NCBI GenBank assembly: GCA_014727915.1
Contig: WJMO01000006.1
Location: 352,001 to 416,000 of the forward strand
Source: Candidatus Altiarchaeales archaeon
GTDB taxonomy: Archaea; Altiarchaeota; Altiarchaeia; IMC4; SCGC-AAA252-I15
Length of the DNA: 64,000 nt
Direction of reading: 5' to 3'
Shown: positions 10,070 through 41,233 of the stretch, in pieces
How the letters are laid out: each line of letters begins with the position of its first letter
Numbering within the stretch: position 1 is the stretch's first letter
Notes under the pieces: model-generated
The model's database searches: none
The model's input: the letters and a program-made list of their open reading frames with translations, nothing else
What the model was told of the DNA's origin: nothing
Position numbers and translations under genes: made by a program

Positions 10070-10789
10070 ATGGAGATGAAGGGCACGTTCTCTGTTGTGC
10101 TTGTGGAGCCCAAGTATGACGGCAACATAGGGAGTGTGGCCAGGGCCATGAGGAACTTCGGTTTCAGGGACCTGGCGCTGGTTAAACCGCCGGAGATTGG
10201 TTCTGAGGGCAGGAGGAACAGCATGCACGCCCGGGAGCTCATGGAAGACGCGAGAGTGTATGGCTCGTTCGATGAGATGAAGGAGGACTTTGACTTCCTC
10301 GTGGGCACGACCGCCAAGGTCGCCGGCGACGGCAACACTTTGAGGACGCCAGTGTTCCCCGAGGAGCTGTCAGTCGCATTGGACTCCAAGGGCAGAGTGG
10401 GGCTGCTCTTCGGGAGGGAGGACTACGGACTGTTAAACGAGGAGATAAGGGAATGCGACATGCTCGTGACAATACCAGCGAACCCCGAGTATCCCACCAT
10501 GAACCTGGCCATGTCAGTCGCGGTCATATTGTACGAGCTGAGCAAACAGGCCAACAAGAGGCGTTCCTCACAGAAGAAGTTCAAGGAACTAAGCGGCAAG
10601 GAGAAGGAGATACTGCTCAGGTTCTTCGACGAGCTGGTTGATGAGATATACGACAGAGACTACGAGAACCAGCTTAGCAAGAAGACCTTCAGGCAGCTGG
10701 TAGGCCGGGCCTTCATAAGCGGCAGGGAAAGCAAGACATTGACCGGTTTGTTCCGTAAGTCGGGGGAGAGGATTAGAGGAGAGCGATGA
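10070..10789 (+). CDS. trmJ: TrmJ-family SPOUT tRNA methyltransferase
   Basis: LVEPKYDGNIGSVARAMRNFG, FGREDYGL, IPANPEYPTMNLA. Confidence 0.93.
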   Translation: MEMKGTFSVVLVEPKYDGNIGSVARAMRNFGFRDLALVKPPEIGSEGRRNSMHARELMEDARVYGSFDEMKEDFDFLVGTTAKVAGDGNTLRTPVFPEELSVALDSKGRVGLLFGREDYGLLNEEIRECDMLVTIPANPEYPTMNLAMSVAVILYELSKQANKRRSSQKKFKELSGKEKEILLRFFDELVDEIYDRDYENQLSKKTFRQLVGRAFISGRESKTLTGLFRKSGERIRGER

Positions 10790-11889
10790 AGTTGGGGCAG
10801 GAGGGCAGGAGAATCATCACTGCTTTCCTCATATCAAGGCTGTTCGTTTTCAGCGTAGGGGCAATAGCAGACACCCACCTGCCAAAGTTCGGCCATTACA
10901 GGTCCTACGGGCACCATGTGCTGGTTGACATGTGGATCAAATGGGATGCGGGATGGTATCTTACAATAGCCCGCGAGGGCTATTCGATTCTGGAGGGGCA
11001 GACGTCCAGCGTGGGGTACTTCCCATTGTATCCGCTCCTCGTCCGTTTGGGCGGCTTCTTCGTCGACCCGGCGATCGCCGGGATAATGATATCCAATGCC
11101 TCGCTGCTGGCCGCGGCATTGATATTGCACAGGCTGTTCCGCCTCGACTTCGACGCTGACACAAGCCACGCCGCCATAGTGTACCTTCTGCTGTTCCCTG
11201 CTAGCGTGTTCTACTCCGCAATATTCACGGAGTCTCTTTTCCTGCTGCTATCGGCTGCTTCATTCTACCAGGCCAGGAAGAACAGGTGGATGATGGCGGG
11301 TGTCAGCGGCTTCCTAGCCTCCCTGACAAGGATGCATGGGCTGCTGCTACTTCCTGCCCTGACCGTCGAATACCTGCATCAGAGAGGATATTTCAAGAGC
11401 TGGCAGGGAGTTGACAGGGGGTGGAAGGATATGGCCTGGCTGGCGCTGATACCGTTGGGCACTATAGTGTTCTTCACATATCTTGGAGTCACAGTCGGAG
11501 ACCCGGCGGCGTTCATAAAAAGCCAGACCCACAGCGGGAGACATATTATGATGCCGTTCATGGTATTCTGGACCTCCCTCACGGTCAACCTCTGCGACTC
11601 TGAGCTTTTGGGTGTGGCTTTCACGGTATTCGGGCTGGCGGTTACCGGGCTGATGATCCGCAGGTTGAGGCCGAGCTACACAGCCTACACGATATCGTCC
11701 ATGGCATTCATAGTTTCCTCTTCCTCGCTGGTTGGGAGCCACAGGTACGTGGCGGTGGTCTTCCCCGTATATGCCGTGATGGCCATGGTGACAGAGAACC
11801 GTTGGCTTAAGACCTTGACTGCGGCCGGCCTAGCAGTCACCTTGGCGTTGTTTACCGTGGGTTTCGTGAACGGATGGTCGATCCACTAG
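10786..11889 (+). CDS. GT-C mannosyltransferase-like membrane protein (PIG-V-like)
   Basis: WDAGWYLTIAREGY, YFPLYP, FPASVFYSAIFTESLF; multiple TM helices. Confidence 0.85.
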   Translation: MKLGQEGRRIITAFLISRLFVFSVGAIADTHLPKFGHYRSYGHHVLVDMWIKWDAGWYLTIAREGYSILEGQTSSVGYFPLYPLLVRLGGFFVDPAIAGIMISNASLLAAALILHRLFRLDFDADTSHAAIVYLLLFPASVFYSAIFTESLFLLLSAASFYQARKNRWMMAGVSGFLASLTRMHGLLLLPALTVEYLHQRGYFKSWQGVDRGWKDMAWLALIPLGTIVFFTYLGVTVGDPAAFIKSQTHSGRHIMMPFMVFWTSLTVNLCDSELLGVAFTVFGLAVTGLMIRRLRPSYTAYTISSMAFIVSSSSLVGSHRYVAVVFPVYAVMAMVTENRWLKTLTAAGLAVTLALFTVGFVNGWSIH

Positions 11890-11932
11890 CAGCCAGGACA
11901 AACTTATATTATCAAGCCCATATTATCTTCCG

Positions 11933-13162
11933 ATGGACGACACCATGTTGAAAGATCTAGCGGATGAATACGGCACTCCACTGTACGTCTATGACGGGAG
12001 GATCATCCAGGCCAGGTGCCGGGAGTTCAAGGACTCCTTCAAGGAATTACCAGTGGAGGTGAAATGCTGCTACGCCGTCAAGGCCAACAGCAACCTAGCG
12101 ATTTTGGCCCTGGTCAGGGATGAGGGATTCGGAGCGGATATTGTCTCTGCAGGAGAGCTCGATGCCGTATTGAAGGCAGGCTTCAAGCCCGGTGACATAG
12201 TGTACACCAGCAACAGCAAAAGAGAAGAGGACTTGAAAGCGGCTGTTGAGGCCGGCGTCATCATAACCGTCGGGAACAAAAGTGAGATAGAGACGTTGAA
12301 GGGGGTGGGGGGGGATAAGATCGCGTTCAGGGTCAACCCTGACGTGAACGCGAAAACGCACCCTAAGATATCGACCTCCCTCAGAGGCAGCAAGTTCGGA
12401 CTGCACTTTGAGAACGGCATAGCGTTCGATTCCGCCAGGAAGGCGTTGGAAATGGGCCTGAAGGTCACAGGGATACACTGCCACATCGGCAGCAACGTAA
12501 CGGACATGAGCGGATTCAAGGAGGCCGCCGAGAAGATGCTCGAGTTCGCTGCGACGCTGAAGGATGATTTGGATGTTGAGCTGGAGTTCATAGACCTGGG
12601 AGGGGGCCTAGGGGTGAGATACAACGAAGAGAAGGTCACTACAGCCGGCGAATTCGCAGAAGCATACAGGAACATCATAACAGAGGGTGTGGAGAAGCTG
12701 GGCTACAAGCCCACATTCCTGTTCGAGCCCGGGAGGTATGTGGTCGCCGAGTCAGGGCTTCTGCTGGCGAAGGTCAACAGTGTCAAGGAAACCCCTGAGA
12801 AGACGTTCATAAACGTGGACGCAGGATTCAACGACCTCCTGAGGCCTGCAATGTACGACGCATACCATGGTATCAGGGTTTTGGGCAAGGAAGGAGAGAG
12901 CAGGAGGTATGACGTGGCAGGGAACCTGTGCGAGAGCGGGGACATACTCGGCAGGGATCGGATGCTGCCCGACGTCGAAGCAGGGGATATTATCGTGATA
13001 GAGAATTCTGGAGCCTACGGCTATTCCATGTCCTCAAACTACAATAGCATGCCATTGCCTGCTGAGGTGCTGGTTAGAGACTCCAAGGTAGACCTTATCA
13101 GGGAGCGGCAGGACGTGCAGGAATTGTACGTCAGACAGAAGGTTCCTGAGGACCTGCTCTGA
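11933..13162 (+). CDS. lysA: Diaminopimelate decarboxylase
   Basis: YAVKAN (PLP lysine), HCHIGS, EPGRY, GNLCESGD. Confidence 0.97.
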   Translation: MDDTMLKDLADEYGTPLYVYDGRIIQARCREFKDSFKELPVEVKCCYAVKANSNLAILALVRDEGFGADIVSAGELDAVLKAGFKPGDIVYTSNSKREEDLKAAVEAGVIITVGNKSEIETLKGVGGDKIAFRVNPDVNAKTHPKISTSLRGSKFGLHFENGIAFDSARKALEMGLKVTGIHCHIGSNVTDMSGFKEAAEKMLEFAATLKDDLDVELEFIDLGGGLGVRYNEEKVTTAGEFAEAYRNIITEGVEKLGYKPTFLFEPGRYVVAESGLLLAKVNSVKETPEKTFINVDAGFNDLLRPAMYDAYHGIRVLGKEGESRRYDVAGNLCESGDILGRDRMLPDVEAGDIIVIENSGAYGYSMSSNYNSMPLPAEVLVRDSKVDLIRERQDVQELYVRQKVPEDLL

Positions 13163-30650: not shown

Positions 30651-31547
30651 TTATAATCCGCGCTTATAATTGCCCCGGGTTATCTGCTGGAGTAGTATTA
30701 TCAGTGAGGGTTCTGCGATGGCTGCGAAGGCCATGGGCAAAGCGGACTTGGGGGTGAGCAACGCCAACGCTATCACCGCCGCGGCTCCGTTGTTCTTGTA
30801 GGATGAGAAGAGGGCATAGGTTATAGAACGTTCGCCGGAGCCGAGACGACGAGCAATATAATATACTATGGTGGCGGGGACAAATGTGCGGACGAACACC
30901 ACAGCAACTACGGGGGAAAGGGACAGGGGGTCCGATATGATGGCCGCGTGGTTCAAGCCTATCAGTACATAGGTTATGAGCGCGAATAGCAGGTTAACTG
31001 CGCTCTTGCCATAGTCCCATGCGGGCGATTCGATACTCGCCAGTATCCTGGACAATGCCATTGGCAGTATTATGAGAACCGACAGCAGGCCGAGTAGGTA
31101 TGAGACGTCCATGACATCTCCGATCAGTAGGAGTATCAGCGAGGGCGTTAAGGCAAGGGCGAGGAGGTAGGCTATGACCTCCGTCAGCGTTGAAGTGTAT
31201 GAGTCTCCGCGTAGGAGGTAGGTGAAGGGGACTACGGACACTGCCGGCGGCACTGCTGCCATGATGATGAAGCCGCGAATGTAGTCCGAGTCGTCGAGGA
31301 GGATGTGGGCGGCAGCCAATATTATACCAGTGAGCAGTATGTACTGCAGTGCCAGCGCCTTAATCGCCGGGGCTGCCAGTTCCCTCTTCCATAATCCCCT
31401 GAAGCTGAGGCTCCTGAGGGATATTGTCATGGACAAGACAAGGGCAGGCATTATCGTCCATTCAAGCATCTGAGCGAGGCCGGGATACGCCAGGGCAGCC
31501 AGTATGGCGGAGAGGAAGACCTTCCTCGTGTCCTCCAGGAAGCTCAT
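30651..31547 (-). CDS. Bile acid:sodium symporter (BASS/SBF) family transporter
   Basis: About 9-10 TM helices, AAVPPA motif, YKNNG motif. Confidence 0.8.
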   Translation of the reverse strand: MSFLEDTRKVFLSAILAALAYPGLAQMLEWTIMPALVLSMTISLRSLSFRGLWKRELAAPAIKALALQYILLTGIILAAAHILLDDSDYIRGFIIMAAVPPAVSVVPFTYLLRGDSYTSTLTEVIAYLLALALTPSLILLLIGDVMDVSYLLGLLSVLIILPMALSRILASIESPAWDYGKSAVNLLFALITYVLIGLNHAAIISDPLSLSPVVAVVFVRTFVPATIVYYIARRLGSGERSITYALFSSYKNNGAAAVIALALLTPKSALPMAFAAIAEPSLIILLQQITRGNYKRGL

Positions 31548-31581
31548 GCATACATATTAACAAAAGGCTAATATCAACGTG

Positions 31582-32868
31582 ATGGTAATCGTGAACAGGG
31601 ATGAGTTAGCCGCCGGTGACCGGTTCAGGGAGGATGCATTGGACATTGTGGAGGCTGGTTTGAAGGCCTGCAAGGTCGAGAACATAATGGGCTCCGTAGT
31701 GGAGGAGGACCGCATATGCGTGGAGGGTGTTGAGTACAGGGTCCAAGACTATGAGAGGGTTCATGTGGTGGGCTTCGGCAAGGCTTCAGGTTCCATGGCC
31801 TGCGAGCTTGAGAGTAGGTGGAGGGATAGGATAGCGGATGGCGTGGTCATATCCTATCCGAACCCGGGTTGCAGGGCCATAAGGGTTTTGGAGGGAACCC
31901 ACCCCATGCAGTCTGAGGGGAACATCCGAGCCTCCGAGGAGCTGTTGGATATCGTCTCGAACGCGGGTGAGAGGGATCTCATAGTATGCCTAATATCGGG
32001 TGGGGGTTCCGCGATGTTCACCAAGCCGGTGGCGGATATCGCATTGGAGGATCTTGTGAGGACGAACAGGCTGCTGCTGGATTCGGGCGGAGACATAAAC
32101 GAGATAAACGCGGTTCGAAAGCGCATTGACTATGTGAAGGGAGGGGGGCTGGCGAGGGCGTGCAATTGCAAGGTGGTCTCGCTCATCATCTCTGACGTGG
32201 TGGGTGACAGGTTGGATGTTATCGCGTCGGGGCCGACCGTGCGGGACAGCACGACATTCGAGGAAGCCATTGGGGTTTTGGAAAAATACGGGCTGGAGGA
32301 CAGGGTTCCCAGGAGAGTATTGGAATGGCTTAGGGAGGGGGTGGAATCGGAGAGGGAAGACGGAGAAGGCTTTGAGCATGTGTCAAACCATGTGATAGGA
32401 GGTAACGGCACCGCCAGGAAGGCAGCAGCCGACTGTGCAGCCGAGCTGGGCTATGACGTTATCGACAGGGGAGAGTCGGAGGGGGAGGCCAGGGAGTTGG
32501 GTGGCGAGCATGCCCGGCGACTTGAAGGCTGCGGGAAGCGCACGATGCTTTTGTCCGGTGGCGAGACCACCGTCACAGTAACTGGAACAGGCAAGGGGGG
32601 GAGGAACCAGGATTACGTGCTAGGATTCCTCGCCCAAGCCAAGACCCCTTTTGTCGTGTGCGCGGTGGACACCGACGGCATAGACGGGTACACGGACGCA
32701 GCCGGCGCCCTAGCAGACCATAGAACGTTAGAGAACGGGTTGGACCCCAGGGAATACCTGAAGGACAATGACCCATATAATTTCTTCAAACAGTCTAATT
32801 CTCTCGTTTTCACGGGAAAAACCGGCACTAACGTGAACGACCTGAGGGTTGCGATAAAACCGGGATGA
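31582..32868 (+). CDS. MOFRL-family glycerate 2-kinase
   Basis: GFGKAS, LISGGGSA, KGGGLA, SDVVGD..IASGPT, GGETTV, GGRNQ, TDGIDG, TGTNVND. Confidence 0.94.
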   Translation: MVIVNRDELAAGDRFREDALDIVEAGLKACKVENIMGSVVEEDRICVEGVEYRVQDYERVHVVGFGKASGSMACELESRWRDRIADGVVISYPNPGCRAIRVLEGTHPMQSEGNIRASEELLDIVSNAGERDLIVCLISGGGSAMFTKPVADIALEDLVRTNRLLLDSGGDINEINAVRKRIDYVKGGGLARACNCKVVSLIISDVVGDRLDVIASGPTVRDSTTFEEAIGVLEKYGLEDRVPRRVLEWLREGVESEREDGEGFEHVSNHVIGGNGTARKAAADCAAELGYDVIDRGESEGEARELGGEHARRLEGCGKRTMLLSGGETTVTVTGTGKGGRNQDYVLGFLAQAKTPFVVCAVDTDGIDGYTDAAGALADHRTLENGLDPREYLKDNDPYNFFKQSNSLVFTGKTGTNVNDLRVAIKPG

Positions 32869-32890: not shown

Positions 32891-32926
32891 CATCCATATA
32901 GACCTGATATAGTAACGTGGGTGGTT

Positions 32927-34369
32927 ATGTTGTTGACTCTTGACTACAAGTCGCGGCCCAGACTGCAGGCCAGGCACATAGAGACTCTGAAGCTGACGAA
33001 GACCATAGAGGACGAGTCAGGGGATCGTCCGATCATGATCTCCGTCGTCATACCCACGTTCAACAAGAAAGACCCCAAATACAACCGGGCACTCTACAGG
33101 GTGCTATCAGAGTGCTGCCAGCTTGTGGACAAGGGAGTCATCGACGAGATAGTCATCGCCGAAGGCTCAAGATTGGAAGATGGGAAACCGGACTACGAGT
33201 TCATGGAGTACATACTGGCCGTGGCCATGAAACACTGCCAGACGTTCAAGAACGAGGTCATGTTCGTGCAGAACATGCCGGAGGGCAGGCAGAAGGCCAT
33301 GCAGGGCAGGTACGACTTCTGCGTCCGTCTGCTGAGCCAGGTCGACCCCAAAATGCACAAGGTCTTCCTCGACCATAGCATACTCACGAAGGACGAGCTC
33401 GAATTCCTCAAAGGCGGTAAAGGCGCTAACCTGTGGTTCAGCATACCCGTGACCTACGGGGACATAATATGCTTCGTGGACTCGGACATCGTGTCGTTCA
33501 ACGACAACTACGTCAAAGGCTTGATAATGCCCATAATGGAGAGGTGGGGTGAGAAGAATGACAGGGGATTCAGCTCTGGGGTCGTGTTCAACAAGGCGAC
33601 GTACAAGAGGCGGCATAAGATAAGGAGAGGTTTCAAATTGGGTGGAAGGCTGTCAAGGCTCGCCGCCAAGCCGCTGTTCATGGTGTTGGCGGAGAGGGGG
33701 ATATTCAAGGGGCTTGACGGGCTGACATACCATTTCAGCGGGGAGTGCGCGTTCACACGCGACCTGGTGAACATGATACAGTTCAGCAACGGATACGACA
33801 TAGAGACGAGTGTCCTATGCCAGCTGTGGAAGAACGCCGGGGTGGACATGATGTCCCAGACCGACCTCGGATATTTCAGGCACCTCCCCGGACCTGAGGA
33901 GCACGCCACCAACATGCTGGGGGAGATAATGAAGGCACTCCACTATTGGATCCGAAGGTACGGGTTCGAGGATTCCATAGGGGACATCGACCAGCTGGTC
34001 AGGGACTATGAGGAAACTGCCGAGGGACTGCTGCCGGAGTATAAGAAGATGGCTGCGAAGAGCTCGGGCAAGATCAAGTACCGGGAGGAGGAGATAATGG
34101 AGGACCGGGCTAGGATACAGAAGTACAAGAACATAATCAGGGAGGGTTTCCAGGCGCCGGAATCCTACGAGCCTAAGCTGCTTAAGCCCTGGGAGAGCAT
34201 AAAGGACCAGATGAACCAGAAGAGGGGCTACAGTTATGTCAGCCTTAAGTCTACGCTGCAGCAGAGGGTTAACATGTTCACCTCCGAGACAATACTGACG
34301 AAGATAAGGGTGCAGATCGACAGGACATCGGAGATAATCGAGGGCTACTGCGATTACATATTCTATTAA
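32927..34369 (+). CDS. gpgS: Glucosyl-3-phosphoglycerate synthase-like glycosyltransferase with C-terminal extension
   Basis: SVVIPT, GKGANLW, GDIICFVDSD (DxD), GGRLSRL, SGEC, GYDIE. Donor sugar is not determined from sequence. Confidence 0.82.
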   Translation: MLLTLDYKSRPRLQARHIETLKLTKTIEDESGDRPIMISVVIPTFNKKDPKYNRALYRVLSECCQLVDKGVIDEIVIAEGSRLEDGKPDYEFMEYILAVAMKHCQTFKNEVMFVQNMPEGRQKAMQGRYDFCVRLLSQVDPKMHKVFLDHSILTKDELEFLKGGKGANLWFSIPVTYGDIICFVDSDIVSFNDNYVKGLIMPIMERWGEKNDRGFSSGVVFNKATYKRRHKIRRGFKLGGRLSRLAAKPLFMVLAERGIFKGLDGLTYHFSGECAFTRDLVNMIQFSNGYDIETSVLCQLWKNAGVDMMSQTDLGYFRHLPGPEEHATNMLGEIMKALHYWIRRYGFEDSIGDIDQLVRDYEETAEGLLPEYKKMAAKSSGKIKYREEEIMEDRARIQKYKNIIREGFQAPESYEPKLLKPWESIKDQMNQKRGYSYVSLKSTLQQRVNMFTSETILTKIRVQIDRTSEIIEGYCDYIFY

Positions 34370-35146
34370 ATGGACCATATAGTCTACTCCGACCTTGATG
34401 GAACGCTCTTGGACGGGAGCTACTCATTCGAGGAGGCGAGATCCGCCCTGAACATGCTTAGGGAACGTTGTATACCCTTGGTGCTTTGCTCCAGCAAGAC
34501 CAGGTCGGAGATCGAAGAATACAGGGGTAGGATGGGGTTGAACGATCCTTTCATCTCGGAGAACGGGTCTGCAATATACGTGCCAGACGGGACGTTCAGC
34601 TTCGACTTCGACTATGATGAGATTATAGGGGGACATAGGGTAATAGGCTTCGGACGCCGGAGCGGAGAGGTCAGGAGGAGGATCGAGGAGATCAGGGAGG
34701 TTGAGGGTTTGGACTTCAAGACCTTCAACGACCTGACAGCCGAGGAACTTTCCGTCGAATCCGGGCTGCAAGTTGGCGAGGCCGTGCTCGCGAAGCAGCG
34801 GGAGTACAGCGAAGTCATACTTGGACTGGACGACAGGGAACGTGATATCCTGGAGGAAAATGGTTTGAATGTTGTGGGGGGTGGCAGGTACTTTTGCGTC
34901 TGCGAGAGCGACAAGGGAACCGCGGTTAAAACGCTTACCGGACTGTACAGGAGAGCACACCCTAACGTGAAGACCATCGGCTTGGGAGATTCCCGGAACG
35001 ACGTTGGAATGCTGGAGGCCGTGGACATCCCGGTTCTCGTGCAGAAGCCCGACGGCTCATACGAGAACATGGGATTGGACGGCATAGTCAGGGCGGATGG
35101 TGTGGGGCCAGTAGGATGGGCTTCCGCATTGGATGAGATATTATAA
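34370..35146 (+). CDS. gpgP: Glucosyl/mannosyl-3-phosphoglycerate phosphatase (HAD IIB)
   Basis: SDLDGTLL, CSSKTRSE, PFISENG, REYSE, GGRY, LGDSRND, GPVGW. Confidence 0.92.
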   Translation: MDHIVYSDLDGTLLDGSYSFEEARSALNMLRERCIPLVLCSSKTRSEIEEYRGRMGLNDPFISENGSAIYVPDGTFSFDFDYDEIIGGHRVIGFGRRSGEVRRRIEEIREVEGLDFKTFNDLTAEELSVESGLQVGEAVLAKQREYSEVILGLDDRERDILEENGLNVVGGGRYFCVCESDKGTAVKTLTGLYRRAHPNVKTIGLGDSRNDVGMLEAVDIPVLVQKPDGSYENMGLDGIVRADGVGPVGWASALDEIL

Positions 35147-35173
35147 AACGCCATATTCCAAATCCATAAACGT

Positions 35174-36532
35174 ATGGAGATAGAGCAGGTGGAGGTCTAC
35201 TCCACGAGCGAGGAGTACCGGCGTCCCATCCCAACAGCTGTGGGAACCCACTACAGAAGGGACAACATACTGGTTAAGGTAACAGCCACCGAAGACGGTG
35301 AAGAATACGGGGGGTGGGGTGAGGGGTCGCCTCTAATACCGGGATACTCTGGGGCTACTAGGAACCACATGGCAGACGACATCGTGAAGAGGATCGCCCC
35401 CGACATACTGGGAGCGGAGGTGAACTCTGTCCAGGACATACTAGACCTAATAGGGAGGGTCAAGAGGAACAGGTACTACATGATGTGCTCGTTGGCTCCC
35501 ATCGACATCGCATTGTTCGACCTGCTCGGACAGGTAAACGCCACACCCACTTTCAACATAGTACGAGAGCACCTGGGACTCGAAAAATATGACGTCGAAG
35601 ACCTTCCTCTGATGCCCGCTAACTTCACCGTCAGCAGGAACGCCACAGAGACGGACAACAGGATAGGCGAGATTCTGGAGGAGGCGGAAGAGTACGTGTC
35701 AAGGGGCTGCACTGTCATAAAGGTGAAGATAGGCATCTTCAAGGACAGCGACGTCGAGTCGCTTAGGAGGATACACGATCACTTCCAGGGCAGGGACGTG
35801 ACCTTGTTCGCGGACGGGAACCAGGCCTACGATTCGGTGAACGAGGTCTTCGACGTCCTGACCGAGATAGGCGACCTGATAGCCTGCCTGGAGCAGCCAT
35901 TCCACAGGGACAAGACCCACATGTCCGCGGAGCTGAACCGGAGGACAAAGCATGTCCAGGGAATGCCATTGATCATAACCGACGAGGGAACGTCATCCGT
36001 TGAGGAGTTGGAGAACGTGCTGTTGAGCGACGCTGCGGGCGGGTGCCTTCTGAAGATGGTCAGGAGCGGCGGCTTCCACTACGGGATAAAAGCCGTTGGT
36101 CTGCTGGAGGGGAGGGATGACTTCAAGTTCGCGCCCTGCTCGATGACCGAGACGGGAATAGGCACGATAGCCAACATACACTCGGCCCTCGCAATCTACG
36201 AGCACTGCCATCCCAGCCTGGGCTTCGGATTCGACGGACCCCTGCAGGTAATAGGGGACGAGTACAAGAACGGGAGGGACACAATATTATACGAGAACCA
36301 GGAGAACGGGCTCTACACCAAGGACGCTAACGGCGTCTGGATATACGATCCAAGCCAGATAGTCGGTCTGGGAAGCGGACTAGGATTCGAAGCCAACTAC
36401 CAGTACATCGAAGAGATAACCGAACATAAGGTAACACTATACCTCGACGAGGGAGACATGATAATGGAGGAGGACGGGGAAGTTAAGGTGATGGGGAAAC
36501 AGAGGGACATATTGAAGTACCCGAGGTACTAG
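35174..36532 (+). CDS. Enolase-superfamily enzyme, MLE subgroup, substrate unknown
   Basis: GWGE capping domain, IDIALFDL, KVK, DGN, EQP, DE, second Lys in LKMVRSGG, GFDGP. Confidence 0.88.
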   Translation: MEIEQVEVYSTSEEYRRPIPTAVGTHYRRDNILVKVTATEDGEEYGGWGEGSPLIPGYSGATRNHMADDIVKRIAPDILGAEVNSVQDILDLIGRVKRNRYYMMCSLAPIDIALFDLLGQVNATPTFNIVREHLGLEKYDVEDLPLMPANFTVSRNATETDNRIGEILEEAEEYVSRGCTVIKVKIGIFKDSDVESLRRIHDHFQGRDVTLFADGNQAYDSVNEVFDVLTEIGDLIACLEQPFHRDKTHMSAELNRRTKHVQGMPLIITDEGTSSVEELENVLLSDAAGGCLLKMVRSGGFHYGIKAVGLLEGRDDFKFAPCSMTETGIGTIANIHSALAIYEHCHPSLGFGFDGPLQVIGDEYKNGRDTILYENQENGLYTKDANGVWIYDPSQIVGLGSGLGFEANYQYIEEITEHKVTLYLDEGDMIMEEDGEVKVMGKQRDILKYPRY

Positions 36533-36632
36533 CCACCAGTTAATAGACCGGTTTCGTGAATGAGAAGACATAGACGTAGAACAGACAAAGGCACATACAC
36601 TTTTATAAGCACAGTGTTCATACTCTACTGTT

Positions 36633-37874
36633 ATGGCCAAGGGTAAAAACGACATTGAGGACGTGGATATCGCGGTTATAATATCAAGCAGGAACAACGC
36701 CCACACCATTGGATATGTGATGTACCAGGTAGCCACTGGGTTGGACAGGTACTTCCCAGACAGGAAGTCCGTGATAATCAATGTGGACGGGAACAGCAAC
36801 GACGGCACCCAGAAGGTGGTGAAAGCCATCAAACTACCCGTGCCCACTCTGACTGTGAAGGACCATCCCTGCCTCGGAGTCTGCGGGAAGGGAGCAGGGA
36901 TCAAGACCGCCCTTGAGGTGGCCGACAGGATGGACGCGGATTGCGTGGCTCTGATCGACTCGGACCTGAGGAGCATAAACGAGGAATGGGTGAAGCTGCT
37001 GATAGAGCCGACCCTGTCAGGGAACTATGACTTCGTAGCACCCTACTACCTCCGCTACAAGTATGACGGCACAATAACCAACTTCATCTCATACCCCATC
37101 GTCAGGTCCCTGTTCGGGAAGAGGGTGAGGCAGCCCATCGGCGGAGAGTTCGGGATGGGCAGGGAATGCTATAAGAAGATACTCGCCCACAAACTCTGGG
37201 ATAAGCTGGAGACCGCCCAGTTCGGCATAGACTCGTTCCTGACCTTCACCGCATTGGGGGAGAAGATGAAGATGTGCGAGGCCGTGTTGGGGGTGAAAGT
37301 GCACGACGTCAAAGACCCGTCCCTCCACCTCGCGCCCATGTTCCGCCAGGTGATAGGCAGCATACTCAACCTTGTGGAGGTGTATGGCAAGGATTGGATG
37401 GACCTCAGCGGCAGCGAACCGCTGCCGCGGATCAGGGGAAACATACGATTCGGACATCCTGAACCCTTCGACGTGGACACGAGGAACATGATGAACATCT
37501 TCCTCGGGGGTAGGGCACAGTACGCCAGCCTGTTGAAAGATATTCTGCCACAGGAACTTTACAGGCAGGTGGCGTCCATACCGGACCTGTTCGAAGAGTT
37601 CATATTCGACGCTGAGCTCTGGGTCGAGATACTATCACACGTCATAATAGCATACTATTTCGTGCCGGAGGAGAAGAGAGAGGACGTTCTGAACGTCCTG
37701 CGGCACCTGTGGATGGGGAGGGTTGCCTACTACACCATAGAAACGAGGGACATGAGTAACCGTGAGGCGGAACACCTCACCGAAGAGCAGGCTCTCATAT
37801 TCGAGGAGAGGAAGCCCCTGCTGATCGAGCTTTACAGCAAGATGAAGTCCGGGGCCAGCCAGGCCCGGCTATGA
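36633..37874 (+). CDS. ggs: Single-step glucosylglycerate (or mannosylglycerate) synthase-like glycosyltransferase
   Basis: GKGAG, DSDLRSI, PYYLRYKYDGTITN, RQPIGGEFG, FGID, KVHDVKDP, MFRQV. Confidence 0.85.
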   Translation: MAKGKNDIEDVDIAVIISSRNNAHTIGYVMYQVATGLDRYFPDRKSVIINVDGNSNDGTQKVVKAIKLPVPTLTVKDHPCLGVCGKGAGIKTALEVADRMDADCVALIDSDLRSINEEWVKLLIEPTLSGNYDFVAPYYLRYKYDGTITNFISYPIVRSLFGKRVRQPIGGEFGMGRECYKKILAHKLWDKLETAQFGIDSFLTFTALGEKMKMCEAVLGVKVHDVKDPSLHLAPMFRQVIGSILNLVEVYGKDWMDLSGSEPLPRIRGNIRFGHPEPFDVDTRNMMNIFLGGRAQYASLLKDILPQELYRQVASIPDLFEEFIFDAELWVEILSHVIIAYYFVPEEKREDVLNVLRHLWMGRVAYYTIETRDMSNREAEHLTEEQALIFEERKPLLIELYSKMKSGASQARL

Positions 37875-37880
37875 ACTGGG

Positions 37881-38294
37881 TCAGATGTCCTCTCCACCGT
37901 CTAAGCCTTCCACTATACTGGAAAGCTCCGACACCCAGACCTTTATCAGGTCCCGGAGGGATACTATGCCCACCAGATTCCCGCGGTCATCGACCACGGG
38001 CAGATGGCGGAAGTTGTTCTCCATCATGGTCTTCTTGACCGCGTTGATGTTATCGTCTTGGCCTATGGTTATGGGGTCCCGGGTCATGGCATCCGAGACC
38101 GTGGCCTTGGAGGGGTCCGTCTCGCCCGCTAAAGCACTTACAAGGTCTCGTTCGGTTATTATGCCGGTTGGCCTGCCGTCTTCGACTATCATCAGGGAGC
38201 TTATGCCATGGTCGTGCATCATCTTGGCAGCTTCCTGTAGGGACTCGCCGCCAGCGACCGTCAGGACGTTATCGGTCCAGTATTTGCCTTCCAT
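37881..38294 (-). CDS. CBS-domain pair protein
   Basis: GIITERDL ... RHLPVVD ... LVGIVSLRDL. Confidence 0.93.
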   Translation of the reverse strand: MEGKYWTDNVLTVAGGESLQEAAKMMHDHGISSLMIVEDGRPTGIITERDLVSALAGETDPSKATVSDAMTRDPITIGQDDNINAVKKTMMENNFRHLPVVDDRGNLVGIVSLRDLIKVWVSELSSIVEGLDGGEDI

Positions 38295-38383
38295 CTTGTA
38301 TTACACCAATATATGACTGCTATTCACAAAATAAAAGCCGGGGCAGGAGCCCATTATTAAAATGTGCGGCCGTATATTATTCG

Positions 38384-41233
38384 ATGACCTTCGACTTCCG
38401 CGCCTTAAAGGCTGAGAAGAAGCCGGAATTCCACAGGAACTACCGGGACTACTATCCTGCAGAGAGCTTGGAGAGCGTTGGCTTCACAAGGAAGGTCTGC
38501 TCAAAGTGCGGCAGGGGCTTCTGGAGCGAGGTGGAGAGAGACTACTGTGACGAGCCCACATGCAGCGGAGGATACCGGTTCATAGGCGAAAAGCTCACAC
38601 GGAAGAGGTTCAGCTACAGGGAGGCATGGGACGAGTACGTGAAAACCTTCAAAAAATGGGATTACACGCCGATAAAAAGGTATCCCGTCGTTTGCCGTTG
38701 GTATGAGGACCTGTACTTCGTCAATGCCGGCATAAACGACTTCCAACCCTACGTGGTCGCGGGGGAGGTGGAGCCGCCCGCGCCCGCCGTCTTGGAGCCT
38801 CAGTTCTGCCTCCGATTCCAGGACATGGACTCCGTCGGCGTCACCGGAAGGCACTATACCGGTTTCATAATGGTCGGCCAGCACACCTTCAACACACCCG
38901 ACAGGCACGTGTACTTCAAAGACGAGGGCATACTGCAGATGCACGAATTCCTCACAGAAGGTTTGGGCATAAAATCCTCGGAGATATTCTACCACGAGGA
39001 CGTCTGGGCTGGGGGAGGGAACTACGGACCCTCGATGGAGTTCTTCAGCCGAGGGCTGGAACTCGGCAACCAGGTGTACATGCAATACGAGGTGCTGCCG
39101 GACGGCAGCAGCCGGGAGCTCAGGACGAAGGTCATAGACATGGGAGCGGGCCTTGAGCGTTGGAGCTGGTTCAGCCAGGGCAACCCAATGAGCTACGACA
39201 GCACCTTCCCAGAGGTCATGGACTACATATACAAGTCCGCGTCTTTCAAGTTCGACGAGAGTTTCATGGCCAGGTTCGGCTACTACAGCGGGATGCTCGA
39301 CATAGACGAGGTCGACGACATCGAATCCGTGTGGGGGGACATCGCCGCAGATCTCGGGTTGGAGTTGAGCGAGTTGAAGTCTAAGGTCTACGAGGCGCGA
39401 GCCCTGTACACGATAGCGGACCACACCCGAACCTTGCTCGTTGCCATACACGACGGTGCCCTGCCGTCGAACGTCGGGGGAGGGTACAACCTCAGGAACA
39501 TACTACGGAGGTGCTGGTCCCTGAACGACGAATACAACCTTCAGATAGAATTGGAGGAGGTCTTCGAGAAGCACGTGGGAGAGTTCGGACGATGGTATAC
39601 TGAGTTGAAGGATGTGGGAAGCCTCTATGACATAATAGCAGTCGAAAGGGAAAGATACAGGGAGACCGCGGAGAAAGGACGGAAGATCGTCGGGAAGGAG
39701 AGGGACATGACCGTCGAACGGATGGTCGAGCTCTACGACAGCCAGGGCATAACACCCGACCTCATACATGAGATGACCGGTGTTGATATCCCGGACAACT
39801 TCTACCGCCTGGTCGATGAAAGGCATGAGAAGATGAGGAAAGAGGAGGATAGGGCGGTTTTGGAGGTCCCGGAGGGAATCTCGCACACTGTCTTAGGATA
39901 CTACGAGGACCAGGAGATAGTGGATTTCAAGGCCAGGGTGTTGTCCGTCTTCGACGACCATGTTATACTTGACAGGACATTCTTCTACCCTGAGGGAGGA
40001 GGGCAGGAGGCGGACAACGGAACCATCGCCGGCAGGAAAGTCAAGCACGTTCAGAAAGTTGGCAGGGTGGTAGTGCACGACCTGGAGGACGTCAGAGGAT
40101 TGAATCCGGGGGAGGAGGTCGAGTGCAGAGTAGACGACAAGCGAAGGATTCAGTTGATGCAGCACCACACCGCAACCCATATAGTGAACGCGGCAGCGCG
40201 GAGGGTGTTGGGGCCTCACATATTCCAGGCGGGCGCCCACAAGAGCGAGAAGGTCTCAAGGCTGGACATCACACACTACAAGGCAGTAGAAGGTGCGGAA
40301 CTGAAGGCTATCGAGGAGGAGGCCAACAGGATTGTAGGGGAATCGCGCCCCGTTACCGTATCATGTATGAGACGAAACGACGCAGAGGAAAGATACGGGA
40401 TGGGCATATACCAGGGCGGAGCCGTGCCCGGCACGGAGCTGAGGATAGTGAACGTAGAGGGCGTGGACGTGGAAGCCTGCGGCGGAACCCACCTAAAGAA
40501 CACAGAGGATGTCGGCCACATCAAGATGCTGTCTGCGAAGAGGATACAGGACGGCGTGGTGCGGCTGGAATTCACGGCAGGGGGAGCTTCAGAGAAGGCA
40601 GCCGGGAAAGAGGAGGAATGGTACCGAGATTCGATATCCAATTTCACATTCAAAATCGAAGACCGCGGCTTCGATGTTGAGATGCTAAAGGCGGCGGCCG
40701 CCGTGTTCAGCATAGAGCCGAGGAAACTGCCCCAGGCCATCGACCGCTTCACGAAGGAATGCGAGAGGGACCTGGAGGCGGTTGAGAAGATGGGGGGAGA
40801 GGGCATTAGAATCGAGGGAGCATCGGACATCCTCGATGCCAGCAGACAGCTATTCAACGCTTGGAAGACAAACCGGAAAGCGCTGGAGAAACTCCAGGGC
40901 GAAGCCGGCCGCGAAGTGGCAGAAGACATAGAGGCTAAGTTCAAAGACGCGGACATTGTGAGGCATATTACTTCCGGGTTGGGCGTTAAGGCATTGACTG
41001 AACTGGCGAACAAGGCCGTTGAGAAACAAGGCAGGCTTCTGATAGTATTGAACAATGCGGATGAGAAGGTGAACGTCGTCGTGGCCTCGAGCAGCGGACA
41101 TAACGCGGCGGAGATATGCGAGAAGCTCAGCAGACAGCTGGGAGGCGGGGGACGGGGCAGAGCAACGCTGGCAATAGGCGGTGGAAAATCGGATAACGCG
41201 GAAAAAACCCTGGAAGAATTTGAGATAGGTTAG
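38384..41233 (+). CDS. alaS: Alanine--tRNA ligase, archaeal type
   Basis: N-terminal CxxC, IDMGAGLER, IADHTRT, editing motifs HHTATH and EACGGTH, C-terminal GGGGRG. Confidence 0.97.
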   Translation: MTFDFRALKAEKKPEFHRNYRDYYPAESLESVGFTRKVCSKCGRGFWSEVERDYCDEPTCSGGYRFIGEKLTRKRFSYREAWDEYVKTFKKWDYTPIKRYPVVCRWYEDLYFVNAGINDFQPYVVAGEVEPPAPAVLEPQFCLRFQDMDSVGVTGRHYTGFIMVGQHTFNTPDRHVYFKDEGILQMHEFLTEGLGIKSSEIFYHEDVWAGGGNYGPSMEFFSRGLELGNQVYMQYEVLPDGSSRELRTKVIDMGAGLERWSWFSQGNPMSYDSTFPEVMDYIYKSASFKFDESFMARFGYYSGMLDIDEVDDIESVWGDIAADLGLELSELKSKVYEARALYTIADHTRTLLVAIHDGALPSNVGGGYNLRNILRRCWSLNDEYNLQIELEEVFEKHVGEFGRWYTELKDVGSLYDIIAVERERYRETAEKGRKIVGKERDMTVERMVELYDSQGITPDLIHEMTGVDIPDNFYRLVDERHEKMRKEEDRAVLEVPEGISHTVLGYYEDQEIVDFKARVLSVFDDHVILDRTFFYPEGGGQEADNGTIAGRKVKHVQKVGRVVVHDLEDVRGLNPGEEVECRVDDKRRIQLMQHHTATHIVNAAARRVLGPHIFQAGAHKSEKVSRLDITHYKAVEGAELKAIEEEANRIVGESRPVTVSCMRRNDAEERYGMGIYQGGAVPGTELRIVNVEGVDVEACGGTHLKNTEDVGHIKMLSAKRIQDGVVRLEFTAGGASEKAAGKEEEWYRDSISNFTFKIEDRGFDVEMLKAAAAVFSIEPRKLPQAIDRFTKECERDLEAVEKMGGEGIRIEGASDILDASRQLFNAWKTNRKALEKLQGEAGREVAEDIEAKFKDADIVRHITSGLGVKALTELANKAVEKQGRLLIVLNNADEKVNVVVASSSGHNAAEICEKLSRQLGGGGRGRATLAIGGGKSDNAEKTLEEFEIG

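Follow-up and report, generated by a model that had tools for sequence, protein, structure and literature searches.

An orphan enolase-superfamily enzyme recurs in archaeal glycosyl-glycerate gene clusters as a candidate accessory step

Results

An enolase-superfamily gene in a glycosyl-glycerate-type cluster

We analysed a stretch of 64,000 nucleotides (nt) from a Candidatus Altiarchaeales archaeon (contig WJMO01000006.1, positions 352,001 to 416,000 of the forward strand; hereafter the window), in which a gene for an enolase-superfamily protein of the MLE subgroup stands among genes of glycosyl-glycerate type. The open reading frame (ORF) at 35174-36532 on the + strand starts with ATG, ends with TAG and encodes 452 amino acids (aa); its coordinates confirm a first-pass annotation, made from the sequence alone, that had placed it 27 nt after a phosphatase gene. 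It begins 27 nt past the stop of this HAD-IIB phosphatase gene and leaves 100 nt before a gene for a GT2 glycosyltransferase (GT). The gene order reads glycerate 2-kinase-type gene, GpgS/MpgS-like GT, MPGP-family phosphatase, enolase-superfamily gene, GT2 and alanyl-tRNA synthetase. We refer to the window enzyme as P0001, to its family as ENO and to the window's genome as G000. Its setting, here and in other genomes, suggests that ENO is an accessory enolase-superfamily step in the pathway to the stress-protectant glycosyl-glycerate solutes, undescribed as far as the literature searched shows. The gene and its immediate neighbours are:

31579-32868, + strand: glycerate 2-kinase-type protein, 429 aa (DUF4147 and MOFRL, Pfam 247 and 117 bits)
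32921-34369, + strand: GpgS/MpgS-like retaining glycosyltransferase, 482 aa, with an N-terminal extension of ~160 aa (NF010496, PDB matches)
34370-35146, + strand: mannosyl/glucosyl-3-phosphoglycerate phosphatase-family HAD-IIB hydrolase, 258 aa (TIGR01486, TIGR02461)
35147-35173, no strand: 27-nt spacer between the phosphatase gene and the enolase-superfamily gene (sequence inspection)
35174-36532, + strand: orphan enolase-superfamily gene of the MLE subgroup, P0001, 452 aa (Pfam, HMMER alignments, structure model)
36633-37874, + strand: GT2 glycosyltransferase with a mannosylglycerate-synthase-type GT domain, 413 aa (Pfam MGS_GT 39.8 bits, cut-off 27)

The neighbours carry the names given to them in the first-pass annotation to different degrees. 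At 220 bits the phosphatase clears the cut-off (164.75) of the MPGP-family model TIGR01486; it scores 222 bits on TIGR02461, where the cut-off of 244 is not reached. The 482-aa GT remains under the cut-off of the GpgS model NF010496 (110 vs 262 bits), and its residues 163-365 match PDB chains of GpgS and MpgS at E ~1e-15. Two NCBIfam glycerate 2-kinase models give the 429-aa kinase 219 and 212 bits, under their cut-offs. The GT2 gene does follow the enzyme gene directly, as described; its product matches the PDB mannosylglycerate synthase at E 4e-5, and its more than 7,600 homologues have generic names only, so that the name 'ggs', for a glucosylglycerate synthase, finds no support. The phosphatase and enolase-superfamily genes are likely co-transcribed, as no TATA-like box was evident in the 27-nt spacer between them. 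A search of public sequencing runs listed none for window 32900-37900, and no RNA data set.

Catalytic residues, fold and C-terminal extension

P0001 scores above the Pfam gathering thresholds of MR_MLE_N (36.2 bits, cut-off 22) and MR_MLE_C (76.9 bits, cut-off 29.4). Alignments to the L-Ala-D/L-Glu epimerase 1jpm and the N-succinyl-Arg/Lys racemase 2p88, together with an AlphaFold2 (AF2) model, place the following features, where invariance refers to the 17 family members:

35720-35728, + strand: K183-V-K185 in VIKVKIG, the KxK motif at the end of barrel strand 2, catalytic base/acid (alignment to 1jpm and 2p88; invariant in 17/17)
35813-35815, + strand: D214 in FADGNQ, first metal ligand (alignment to DxNQ of 1jpm and 2p88)
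35891-35893, + strand: E240 in LEQPF, second metal ligand (alignment to EQP of 1jpm and 2p88)
35981-35986, + strand: D270-E271 in ITDEG, third metal ligand and the next Glu (alignment to DE of 1jpm and 2p88)
36053-36064, + strand: K294 in LLKMVRSGG, second catalytic Lys at the end of strand 6, with R297 (alignment; invariant)
36227-36235, + strand: G352-F353-D354 in GFGFDGP, at the DxD site of dipeptide epimerases (alignment to 1jpm; invariant in 17/17)
36386-36529, + strand: family-specific C-terminal extension, ~residues 405-452, ending in ...LK(H/Y)PRY (AF2 model; P450 and Y452 invariant)

The catalytic set first read from the letters (KVK; DGN, EQP and DE; LKMVRSGG) is borne out, as all of these motifs align on those of 1jpm and 2p88. 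D214, E240 and D270, invariant in all 17 members, lie at the ends of barrel strands 3, 4 and 5 as the predicted carboxylate metal ligands, and R297, three residues past K294, corresponds to 'position 266' in NSAR/OSBS numbering. Equally correct was the reading of GFD where dipeptide epimerases have DxD: HMMER aligns G352 and D354 on both Asp of 'FDFDAP' in 1jpm.

The AF2 model, built on the family alignment, has a mean predicted local distance difference test score (pLDDT) of 83.8 and a predicted template modelling score (pTM) of 0.88, and is weak solely in two lid loops (residues 18-24 and 55-59). Foldseek searches with this model returned more than 40 MLE/MR-type structures at target template modelling (TM) scores of 0.78-0.89, the best matches at E 1e-22 to 1e-17. 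Query TM scores against solved relatives reach only 0.63-0.73 because of insertions and a C-terminal sheet-helix extension, both of which had been noted from the 452-aa sequence and are seen in the model by comparison with relatives of ~360-370 aa. The extension is modelled as a three-stranded sheet (strands 416-425, 428-433 and 436-442) followed by a helix (443-448), and the sheet and helix of residues 416-448 have no counterpart in the solved relatives of ~360-370 aa. Sequence and model together contain what defines the MLE subgroup, namely the two-domain fold, the three metal-ligand carboxylates and the KxK motif plus strand-6 Lys, and P0001 is predicted to be a catalytically competent, Mg2+-dependent MLE-subgroup enzyme with an intact catalytic set. 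Two arginines invariant in the family, R29 (lid loop) and R155 (directly following barrel strand 1), are absent at the aligned positions of 1jpm, 2p88 and the outgroup protein P0022; both may face the active site, where an additional anionic group, for instance a 3-phosphate, would fit them.

P0001 lies outside the curated MLE-subgroup families

A scan of P0001 against NCBIfam gave eight matches at E ≤0.001, all far under their cut-offs. They include the MenC (OSBS) models TIGR01928 (68 bits vs 200.65), NF002739 (31 vs 259) and NF002782 (22 vs 288), muconate cycloisomerase TIGR02534 (57.5 vs 334.95), cis-3-hydroxy-L-proline dehydratase NF043002 (54.4 vs 500, the third-best match) and the dipeptide (Ala-Glu) epimerase NF041118 (40 vs 500). 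Neither the enolase model TIGR01060 nor any curated NSAR model is among the eight. By sequence, the closest solved relatives are 2p88 and then the dipeptide epimerases 1jpm, 3jva and 3q45; by fold, the N-acylamino acid racemase 2zc8 and 2p88 come first, with muconate cycloisomerases and OSBS nearly as good. The Foldseek matches listed among solved structures are 16-22% identical to P0001; those to 2zc8, 2p88, muconate cycloisomerases and dipeptide epimerases lie at 19-22%, and the best of them reach target TM scores of 0.84-0.89.

The 2p88 enzyme of Bacillus cereus is closest to P0001 in sequence (phmmer E 1.7e-15, profile E 5.6e-30), and 2zc8 and 2p88 share with P0001 the KxK, D, E, D, K set and a basic residue three positions past the strand-6 Lys, at target TM scores of 0.85-0.89. 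NSAR-type racemases (2p88, 2zc8 and the NSAR/OSBS enzymes 1sjb/7s8w) form a related group that acts on N-acyl or N-succinyl amino acids. P0001 differs from 2p88 and 2zc8 in its ~19-21% identity and in its length of 452 aa vs ~368 aa, owing to the insertions and the C-terminal sheet-helix extension, and, unlike NSAR systems, it occurs in archaeal hosts and in a glycoside-solute gene context, not in an amino-acid pathway. Its identity to solved NSAR-type racemases is 19-22%, and its neighbours are GT, phosphatase and kinase genes, not acylases or succinyltransferases.

With the dipeptide epimerases (YkfB L-Ala-D/L-Glu epimerase 1jpm/1tkk; also 3jva and 3q45), P0001 shares an alignment over residues 1-364, the SM(x)ET stretch after strand 7, the second Asp of DxD (D354) and the two-Lys machinery for 1,1-proton transfer. 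The first Asp of the dipeptide-epimerase DxD binds the peptide ammonium group; in ENO it is Gly in 17/17 members, and ENO has no peptidoglycan-recycling context. Enolase, the 2-phospho-D-glycerate hydro-lyase, belongs to the same superfamily, and its first step is abstraction of the C2 proton from a 2-O-substituted D-glycerate bound to Mg2+; P0001 differs from it in having the MLE-type Lys/Lys set and not the enolase-subgroup residues.

A basic residue three positions past the strand-6 Lys is found in all characterised racemase/epimerase families of the subgroup and not in non-promiscuous OSBS, according to the available part of Truong et al. (10.1101/2022.03.03.481873). This NSAR/OSBS-type second-shell residue ('R266'), present in P0001 as the invariant R297, is necessary for this subfamily and not specific to it. 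The OSBS role has no pathway to serve, since MenD (TIGR00173) is above its cut-off in 0/4 ENO genomes (best score 53.7 bits vs 244; G000 is 90.6% complete). P0001 is thus an orphan MLE-subgroup enzyme outside the known curated families, to judge from its sequence; the sub-cut-off model scores, the isolated sequence cluster described below and the MenD result uphold the earlier view that it is not an ordinary dipeptide epimerase or OSBS.

A very small family

A word-indexed search of 5.8 billion proteins returned 16 full-length relatives of P0001 at 51-59% identity, after which the next matches were two OSBS-annotated proteins (E 5e-5 and 7e-4). Profile searches over all 1.84 billion 50%-identity representatives gave a single cluster for the family (866 bits), below which came a divergent 463-aa protein, P0020 (355 bits), then fragments, and then proteins of 380-410 aa at ≤210 bits; only 11 proteins reached E 1e-30. 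Searches of the ESM Atlas returned generic MR_MLE clusters only. Across the 17 members 127/452 positions are invariant, including every catalytic residue, R297, P450 and Y452. Fused (Rosetta-stone) forms were sought among proteins of 792-2260 aa and none was found, which is weak evidence. The family tree of 21 rows is star-like, with 10/18 inner branches lacking resolution, so that no donor can be named.

Three of the nearest relatives by score, P0020, P0023 and P0025, are full-length or shortened proteins that have lost KxK and, with I or V in place of E240, also the second metal ligand. The strand-6 Lys is replaced by Arg in P0023 and P0025. All three retain (R/L)SGGF, P0020 and P0023 retain QPFHRD, and the C-terminal tail is a different, conserved one (RFPYRKG). 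By these replacements they look like catalytically dead paralogues.

Insertion into an existing cluster in the window's lineage

We counted the genes of the cluster in 61 genomes of the window's phylum, where ENO is present in 1/61 (the window's own), the GpgS-like GT in 26/61 and the GT2 in 6/61. Four relatives of the same family (G033, G034, G044 and G046) have the glycerate kinase, GpgS-like GT, HAD and GT2 genes in synteny, beside the same alanyl-tRNA synthetase and Ham1 genes and, in G033 and G034, also an SBF-family transporter gene. Their HAD-GT2 gap measures 33-42 nt; the corresponding interval of the window measures 1,486 nt (35147-36632) and is occupied by the enolase-superfamily gene. 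Since the pathway runs without ENO in these close relatives, ENO is an accessory step and not a core one. The proposal of an additional step in the glycosyl-glycerate pathway stands as far as linkage is concerned, and is narrowed to an accessory role.

Signs of the insertion itself were sought around the gene. A recent transfer visible in composition was ruled out, as gene GC (0.553) and GC at third codon positions (0.746) match the neighbours, and of insertion scars only chance-like repeats of 12-22 nt were found; alignment of the junction with that of G033 showed nothing.

Recurrent linkage in unrelated archaeal groups

One scan each of genome contigs and metagenome contigs recovered ten loci (L001-L010). 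L002, L007 and L008 share one ENO protein (100% or 99.6% identical to P0012) and the same neighbours, L004 equals L009, and L004/L009, L005 and L010 hold an outgroup of 32-36% identity; the distinct loci of the true family are therefore the window, L001, L002, L003 and L006. Genomes G061, G062 and G063 hold L001, L002 and L003, respectively. Among relatives of at least 50% identity, ENO is linked to GpgS, phosphatase, glycerate-kinase and GT genes in 4/5 distinct loci and 3/4 lineages, and the GpgS genes beside it are of three non-orthologous types. Recurrence next to three such types points to a functional pathway tie rather than inherited synteny, and the test for recurring gpgS linkage that the first-pass annotation had proposed is positive. 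The coupling of ENO to the glucosylglycerate pathway is well supported.

The L001 locus, from a Hydrothermarchaeales metagenome-assembled genome, is a same-strand run of methyltransferase, ENO, SerB-like HAD, GT2, glycerate kinase and GpgS genes with gaps of 16-200 nt. Its GT2 is orthologous to that of the window (33% identity), and its GpgS, cut by the contig end, is of the Methanococcoides (M. burtonii) type with 462 bits on NF040724. The L001 and L002 clusters both contain a homologue of the window's glycerate kinase. L002 and L003 come from one GTDB family of small genomes, with members under the labels Nanoarchaeota or Methanosarcinales; public records label relatives of the window's genome as Altiarchaeota. 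The GpgS of L002 and L003 passes NF010496 (358 bits, cut-off 262). Between gpgS and gpgP, ENO stands back-to-back with a GH13 gene of sucrose-phosphorylase type (best PDB E 2e-44), and genes for another GT and an MPGP-type HAD come after it. A glycerate kinase gene is present in L002; none was found within the 14.8 kb of L003 sequence.

A relative without ENO, G300, shows the insertion site in this family: gpgS is followed directly by gpgP, with PanB and CoaBC upstream and a deoxyhypusine-synthase gene, orf261 and orf269 downstream. In G062 gpgS and gpgP are separated by a block comprising glycerate kinase, orf224, GH13, ENO and GT, and the flanking genes are the same as in G300. ENO occurs in 2/70 genomes of the family of G062/G063, GpgS in 7/70; ENO was further found in 1/35 genomes of the order of G061 and in one of a sample of 201 genomes from the order of G062. 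Where GpgS was counted too, ENO is present solely in GpgS-bearing genomes (1/26 in the window's phylum, 2/7 in the G062/G063 family). The best explanation is that this very small family has entered glucosylglycerate-type clusters repeatedly, probably through horizontal transfer, to serve there as an optional additional step.

Comparison with known solute clusters

Clusters for glucosylglycerate and mannosylglucosylglycerate (gpgS-gpgP, ggs/mggS and a sucrose-phosphorylase homologue) have been described in Persephonella marina, Methanococcoides burtonii, Petrotoga mobilis and Rhodopirellula baltica. The textbook routes to glucosylglycerate and mannosylglycerate consist of a synthase plus a phosphatase or of a single-step synthase. 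The window and related loci resemble these clusters in having GpgS-type GTs, an MPGP-family or other HAD phosphatase and a second GT, and L002 and L003 in addition have the GH13 of sucrose-phosphorylase type. In PMC3736172, as far as its available text goes, mggS, phosphatase and sucrose phosphorylase form operon-like groupings, such phosphorylases accompany glucosylglycerate genes and, unlike in the loci described here, no enolase-superfamily gene is mentioned. Full-text literature searches that paired glucosylglycerate or mannosylglycerate with enolase superfamily, muconate lactonizing or mandelate racemase found no publication linking them; searches for a glycerate racemase, epimerase or dehydratase matched texts that, in their accessible parts, concern engineered D-glycerate dehydratase activity or are unrelated.

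Discussion

Proposed chemistry at C2 of the glycerate moiety

ENO is a functional variant within a known superfamily, in a glycosyl-glycerate gene context. Given the linkage, the gene quite probably works in glycosyl-glycerate metabolism. Enolase-superfamily enzymes of this kind remove the proton alpha to a metal-bound carboxylate, and the candidate C2 carbons in the pathway are those of glycerate, the phosphoglycerates, glucosyl-3-phosphoglycerate and the finished glycosyl-glycerate. We give slightly better than an even chance to the C2-H of the glycerate moiety being the proton removed, and only tentatively favour epimerisation or racemisation at this C2, rather than elimination, as the outcome. 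In such a reaction D214, E240 and D270 would hold the metal to which the carboxylate of the glycerate moiety binds; a 2-O-glycosyl-glycerate is the likelier substrate, free D-glycerate the less likely one. Either K185 or K294, the two opposed lysines, would remove the C2 proton to give a metal-stabilised enediolate, and the other would reprotonate the opposite face; this 1,1-proton transfer would invert C2 and lead to the L-glycerate form of the solute or its precursor. Formally, a 2-O-glycosyl-glycerate is laid out like an N-acyl amino acid, with a carboxylate, an alpha-H and a hetero-atom-linked substituent at C2.

Several observations weigh against C2 epimerisation in this pathway. We infer the substrate and the outcome of enolisation, the substrate from gene neighbourhood only, and genomic contexts cover 4/16 homologues. 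No natural L-glycerate glycoside is known to us, though no search was aimed at one. Close relatives of G000 carry the cluster without the enolase-superfamily gene, and every ENO genome has a candidate solute-degrading enzyme (MGH1-like in G000 and G061; GH13 in G061, G062 and G063). In L006, a bacterial metagenome contig with RF1 and PrmC genes and a GC of 0.45, ENO lies beside a DDE transposase gene and no glycerate-pathway gene is found within 8 kb on either side. The outgroup proteins P0022, P0024 and P0028, of normal length and ~32-35% identity, also have the SPLIPSYSGE lid loop, P0022 and P0024 retain most of the GFGFDGP stretch (GFGFD and GFGFE), and the outgroup loci examined (L005, L009) have no linkage to glycerate genes; these shared loops therefore cannot be read as glycosyl-glycerate-specific. 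Finally, muconate cycloisomerases, which are not racemases, also have a basic residue at the position of R297, as stated in the accessible part of Truong et al. (10.1101/2022.03.03.481873), so that R297 permits, and does not prove, epimerase chemistry.

Weighing of alternative functions

The same enzyme in the same pathway could instead end enolisation in a beta-elimination, which we regard as possible and on balance doubtful. Three versions are conceivable: (i) D-glycerate would be dehydrated to enolpyruvate and hence pyruvate, a kinase-independent disposal of glycerate released from the solute; (ii) glucosylglycerate would be converted to 2-(glycosyloxy)acrylate in an enolase-like reaction, with the glycosyl group in place of the phosphate of 2-phosphoglycerate; or (iii) phosphate would be eliminated from glucosyl-3-phosphoglycerate. 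MLE enzymes with the same Lys pair do eliminate, OSBS (1sjb and others) is among the Foldseek matches and the hydroxyproline dehydratase is the third NCBIfam match (54 bits); against this, the closest characterised sequence relatives are racemases and epimerases. In L002 and L003 ENO is the divergent neighbour of the GH13 of sucrose-phosphorylase type, which would release glycerate; GH13 subfamily 18 includes a glucosylglycerate phosphorylase releasing free glycerate, according to the portion of the source available. In L003, whose 14.8 kb show no glycerate kinase gene, a dehydratase could take its place; three of the four linked clusters do carry this kinase, which would make a glycerate dehydratase redundant there. 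The invariant R29 and R155, whose orientation towards the active site is suggested by alignment and secondary structure, would suit an anionic substituent; yet loss of phosphate from glucosyl-3-phosphoglycerate would waste an activated sugar unless the enol ether were used further, and among the genes that recur in the clusters there is no reductase or other candidate for a follow-up step. ENO might, alternatively, act on another carboxylate, such as another stress-response intermediate, an N-acyl amino acid or another 2-substituted acid that has nothing to do with glycerate, with clustering due to co-regulation or co-transfer. The unlinked L006 member next to a transposase, the lid-loop and GFGFD motifs of the unlinked outgroup and the loose common denominator of the recurring neighbours (different GTs, two HAD types) speak for this. 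It is nonetheless unlikely in view of the insertion inside gpgS/gpgP-type clusters of separate lineages (between phosphatase and GT2 in G000, between gpgS and gpgP in G062/G063) and the G061 operon, and of the three non-orthologous types of accompanying GpgS gene; with ~1,000-1,800 genes per genome, we roughly estimate the chance of three landings at a single cluster at ~1e-7 or less.

Any known family function appears highly doubtful. An ordinary but divergent member of a known MLE family (dipeptide epimerase, OSBS/MenC, N-succinylamino acid racemase or muconate cycloisomerase) would account for the common fold and catalytic residues and for the weak model matches (TIGR01928 68, TIGR02534 57.5 and NF041118 40 bits). 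We consider it very improbable, as all eight NCBIfam matches are far under cut-off, identity to the listed solved structures is 16-22%, the first DxD Asp is Gly in 17/17 members, MenD is above cut-off in 0/4 genomes and the search of representatives sets ENO apart (866 bits, then 355, 293 and ≤210). Archaea, the hosts of the linked members, have no murein peptides, which counts against a murein-peptide epimerase. The first-pass annotation had also offered a non-canonical enolase that would convert 2-phosphoglycerate to phosphoenolpyruvate downstream of glycerate 2-kinase. Such chemistry is within the reach of the superfamily, and a glycerate 2-kinase-type gene is present in three of the four linked clusters; L003, however, carries ENO without a kinase nearby, and P0001 has the MLE-type Lys/Lys set and no enolase-model match. 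Canonical enolase (TIGR01060, cut-off 300) was found at 563-581 bits in 5/5 genomes tested (G000, G061, G062, G063 and G033), that of the window's genome at G000:C11:93339-94598 with 571 bits. Replacement of enolase is therefore not needed in any of the four ENO genomes, and this option, now unnecessary, has next to no likelihood.

A new C2 activity on a glycoside solute, be it a glycosyl-glycerate C2-epimerase or a dehydrating 'enolase for glycosides', is thus a speculative prospect, less probable than not by a clear measure. If an epimerase, ENO would yield an L-glycerate stereoisomer of glucosyl- or mannosylglycerate, a compatible solute not yet described; if a dehydratase, it would turn glucosylglycerate into a glycosyl enolpyruvate, an enol-ether analogue of phosphoenolpyruvate. 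In either case a pathway considered complete with synthase and phosphatase would gain a step, and the travel of the gene into operons of uncultured archaea would be explained; there it would point to an unrecognised solute or solute-recycling route. Within the MLE subgroup it would be a new reaction specificity, on 2-O-glycosylated hydroxy acids, beyond amino-acid and aromatic substrates. As a tiny, highly conserved family of soluble protein, ENO is readily assayable.

Further features of the window and related loci

Three further features flank the cluster or lie within it:

30651-31547, - strand: SBF-family transporter (bile acid:Na+ symporter-like), divergent from the glycerate kinase gene (Pfam SBF 27.7 bits)
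36601-36608, + strand: TTTTATAA, a TATA-box-like element ~25 nt upstream of the GT2 start (sequence inspection)
38168-41233: alanyl-tRNA synthetase ORF, 1021 aa, TTG start (archaeal AlaRS model matches from residue 96 only)

The element TTTTATAA is a possible separate promoter for the GT2, and the true start of the alanyl-tRNA synthetase ORF is probably further downstream than the listed TTG. The position of the SBF gene is kept in the relatives G033 and G034, and orthologues of 52-57% identity flank the cluster in L037 and L038. A PanS-like/SBF transporter thus flanks the cluster in the window's lineage, and in the G062/G063 family gpgS adjoins PanB and CoaBC with or without ENO (L002 1897-2667, L003 4040-4810, L054, L056); this adjacency of gpgS to pantothenate/CoA genes is probably plain synteny.

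No Pfam or NCBIfam model matched the first ~160 aa of the 482-aa GT (window 32921-33400), an N-terminal extension that is mostly covered by the matches in 26/61 phylum genomes (query from residues 2-16 in most rows). The window's genome has a second MGS-type GT2 copy outside the cluster, at G000:C10:27827-29023 (L041 7801-9024), which is 47% identical to that at 36633-37874; G034 likewise has a second copy.

MGH1-like hydrolase genes lie at C5:16291-17430 and C12:33987-35084 of G000 (304 and 298 bits, cut-off 27), and G061 has two such matches, both over the cut-off; none was seen in the relative G033, which is 89% complete. It thus seems that the window's organism could both synthesise and hydrolyse a glycosyl-glycerate. 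ENO as the sole route of solute breakdown was ruled out by the MGH1-like hydrolases of G000 and G061 and the GH13 of G061, G062 and G063.

In L006 the gene for P0010 (100% identical) lies ~360 nt downstream of the DDE transposase gene (DDE_Tnp_1_4, 428 bits; L006 6279-7625 and 7983-9350), a proximity that fits the patchy, transfer-like distribution of ENO. In L003 a GH1 beta-glucosidase gene is split into two ORFs of 139 and 312 aa (10658-11077 and 11123-12061; profile positions 2-132 and 149-452), by a frameshift, as a broken gene or through an assembly error. A gene for a GalT/HIT-type hexose-1-phosphate nucleotidyltransferase-like protein closes the expanded cluster in L002 (12160-13101, - strand) and L003 (12914-13639, - strand) and had no match in those relatives lacking ENO that were examined; this enzyme and the GH13 phosphorylase could jointly recycle glucose 1-phosphate into nucleotide sugar.

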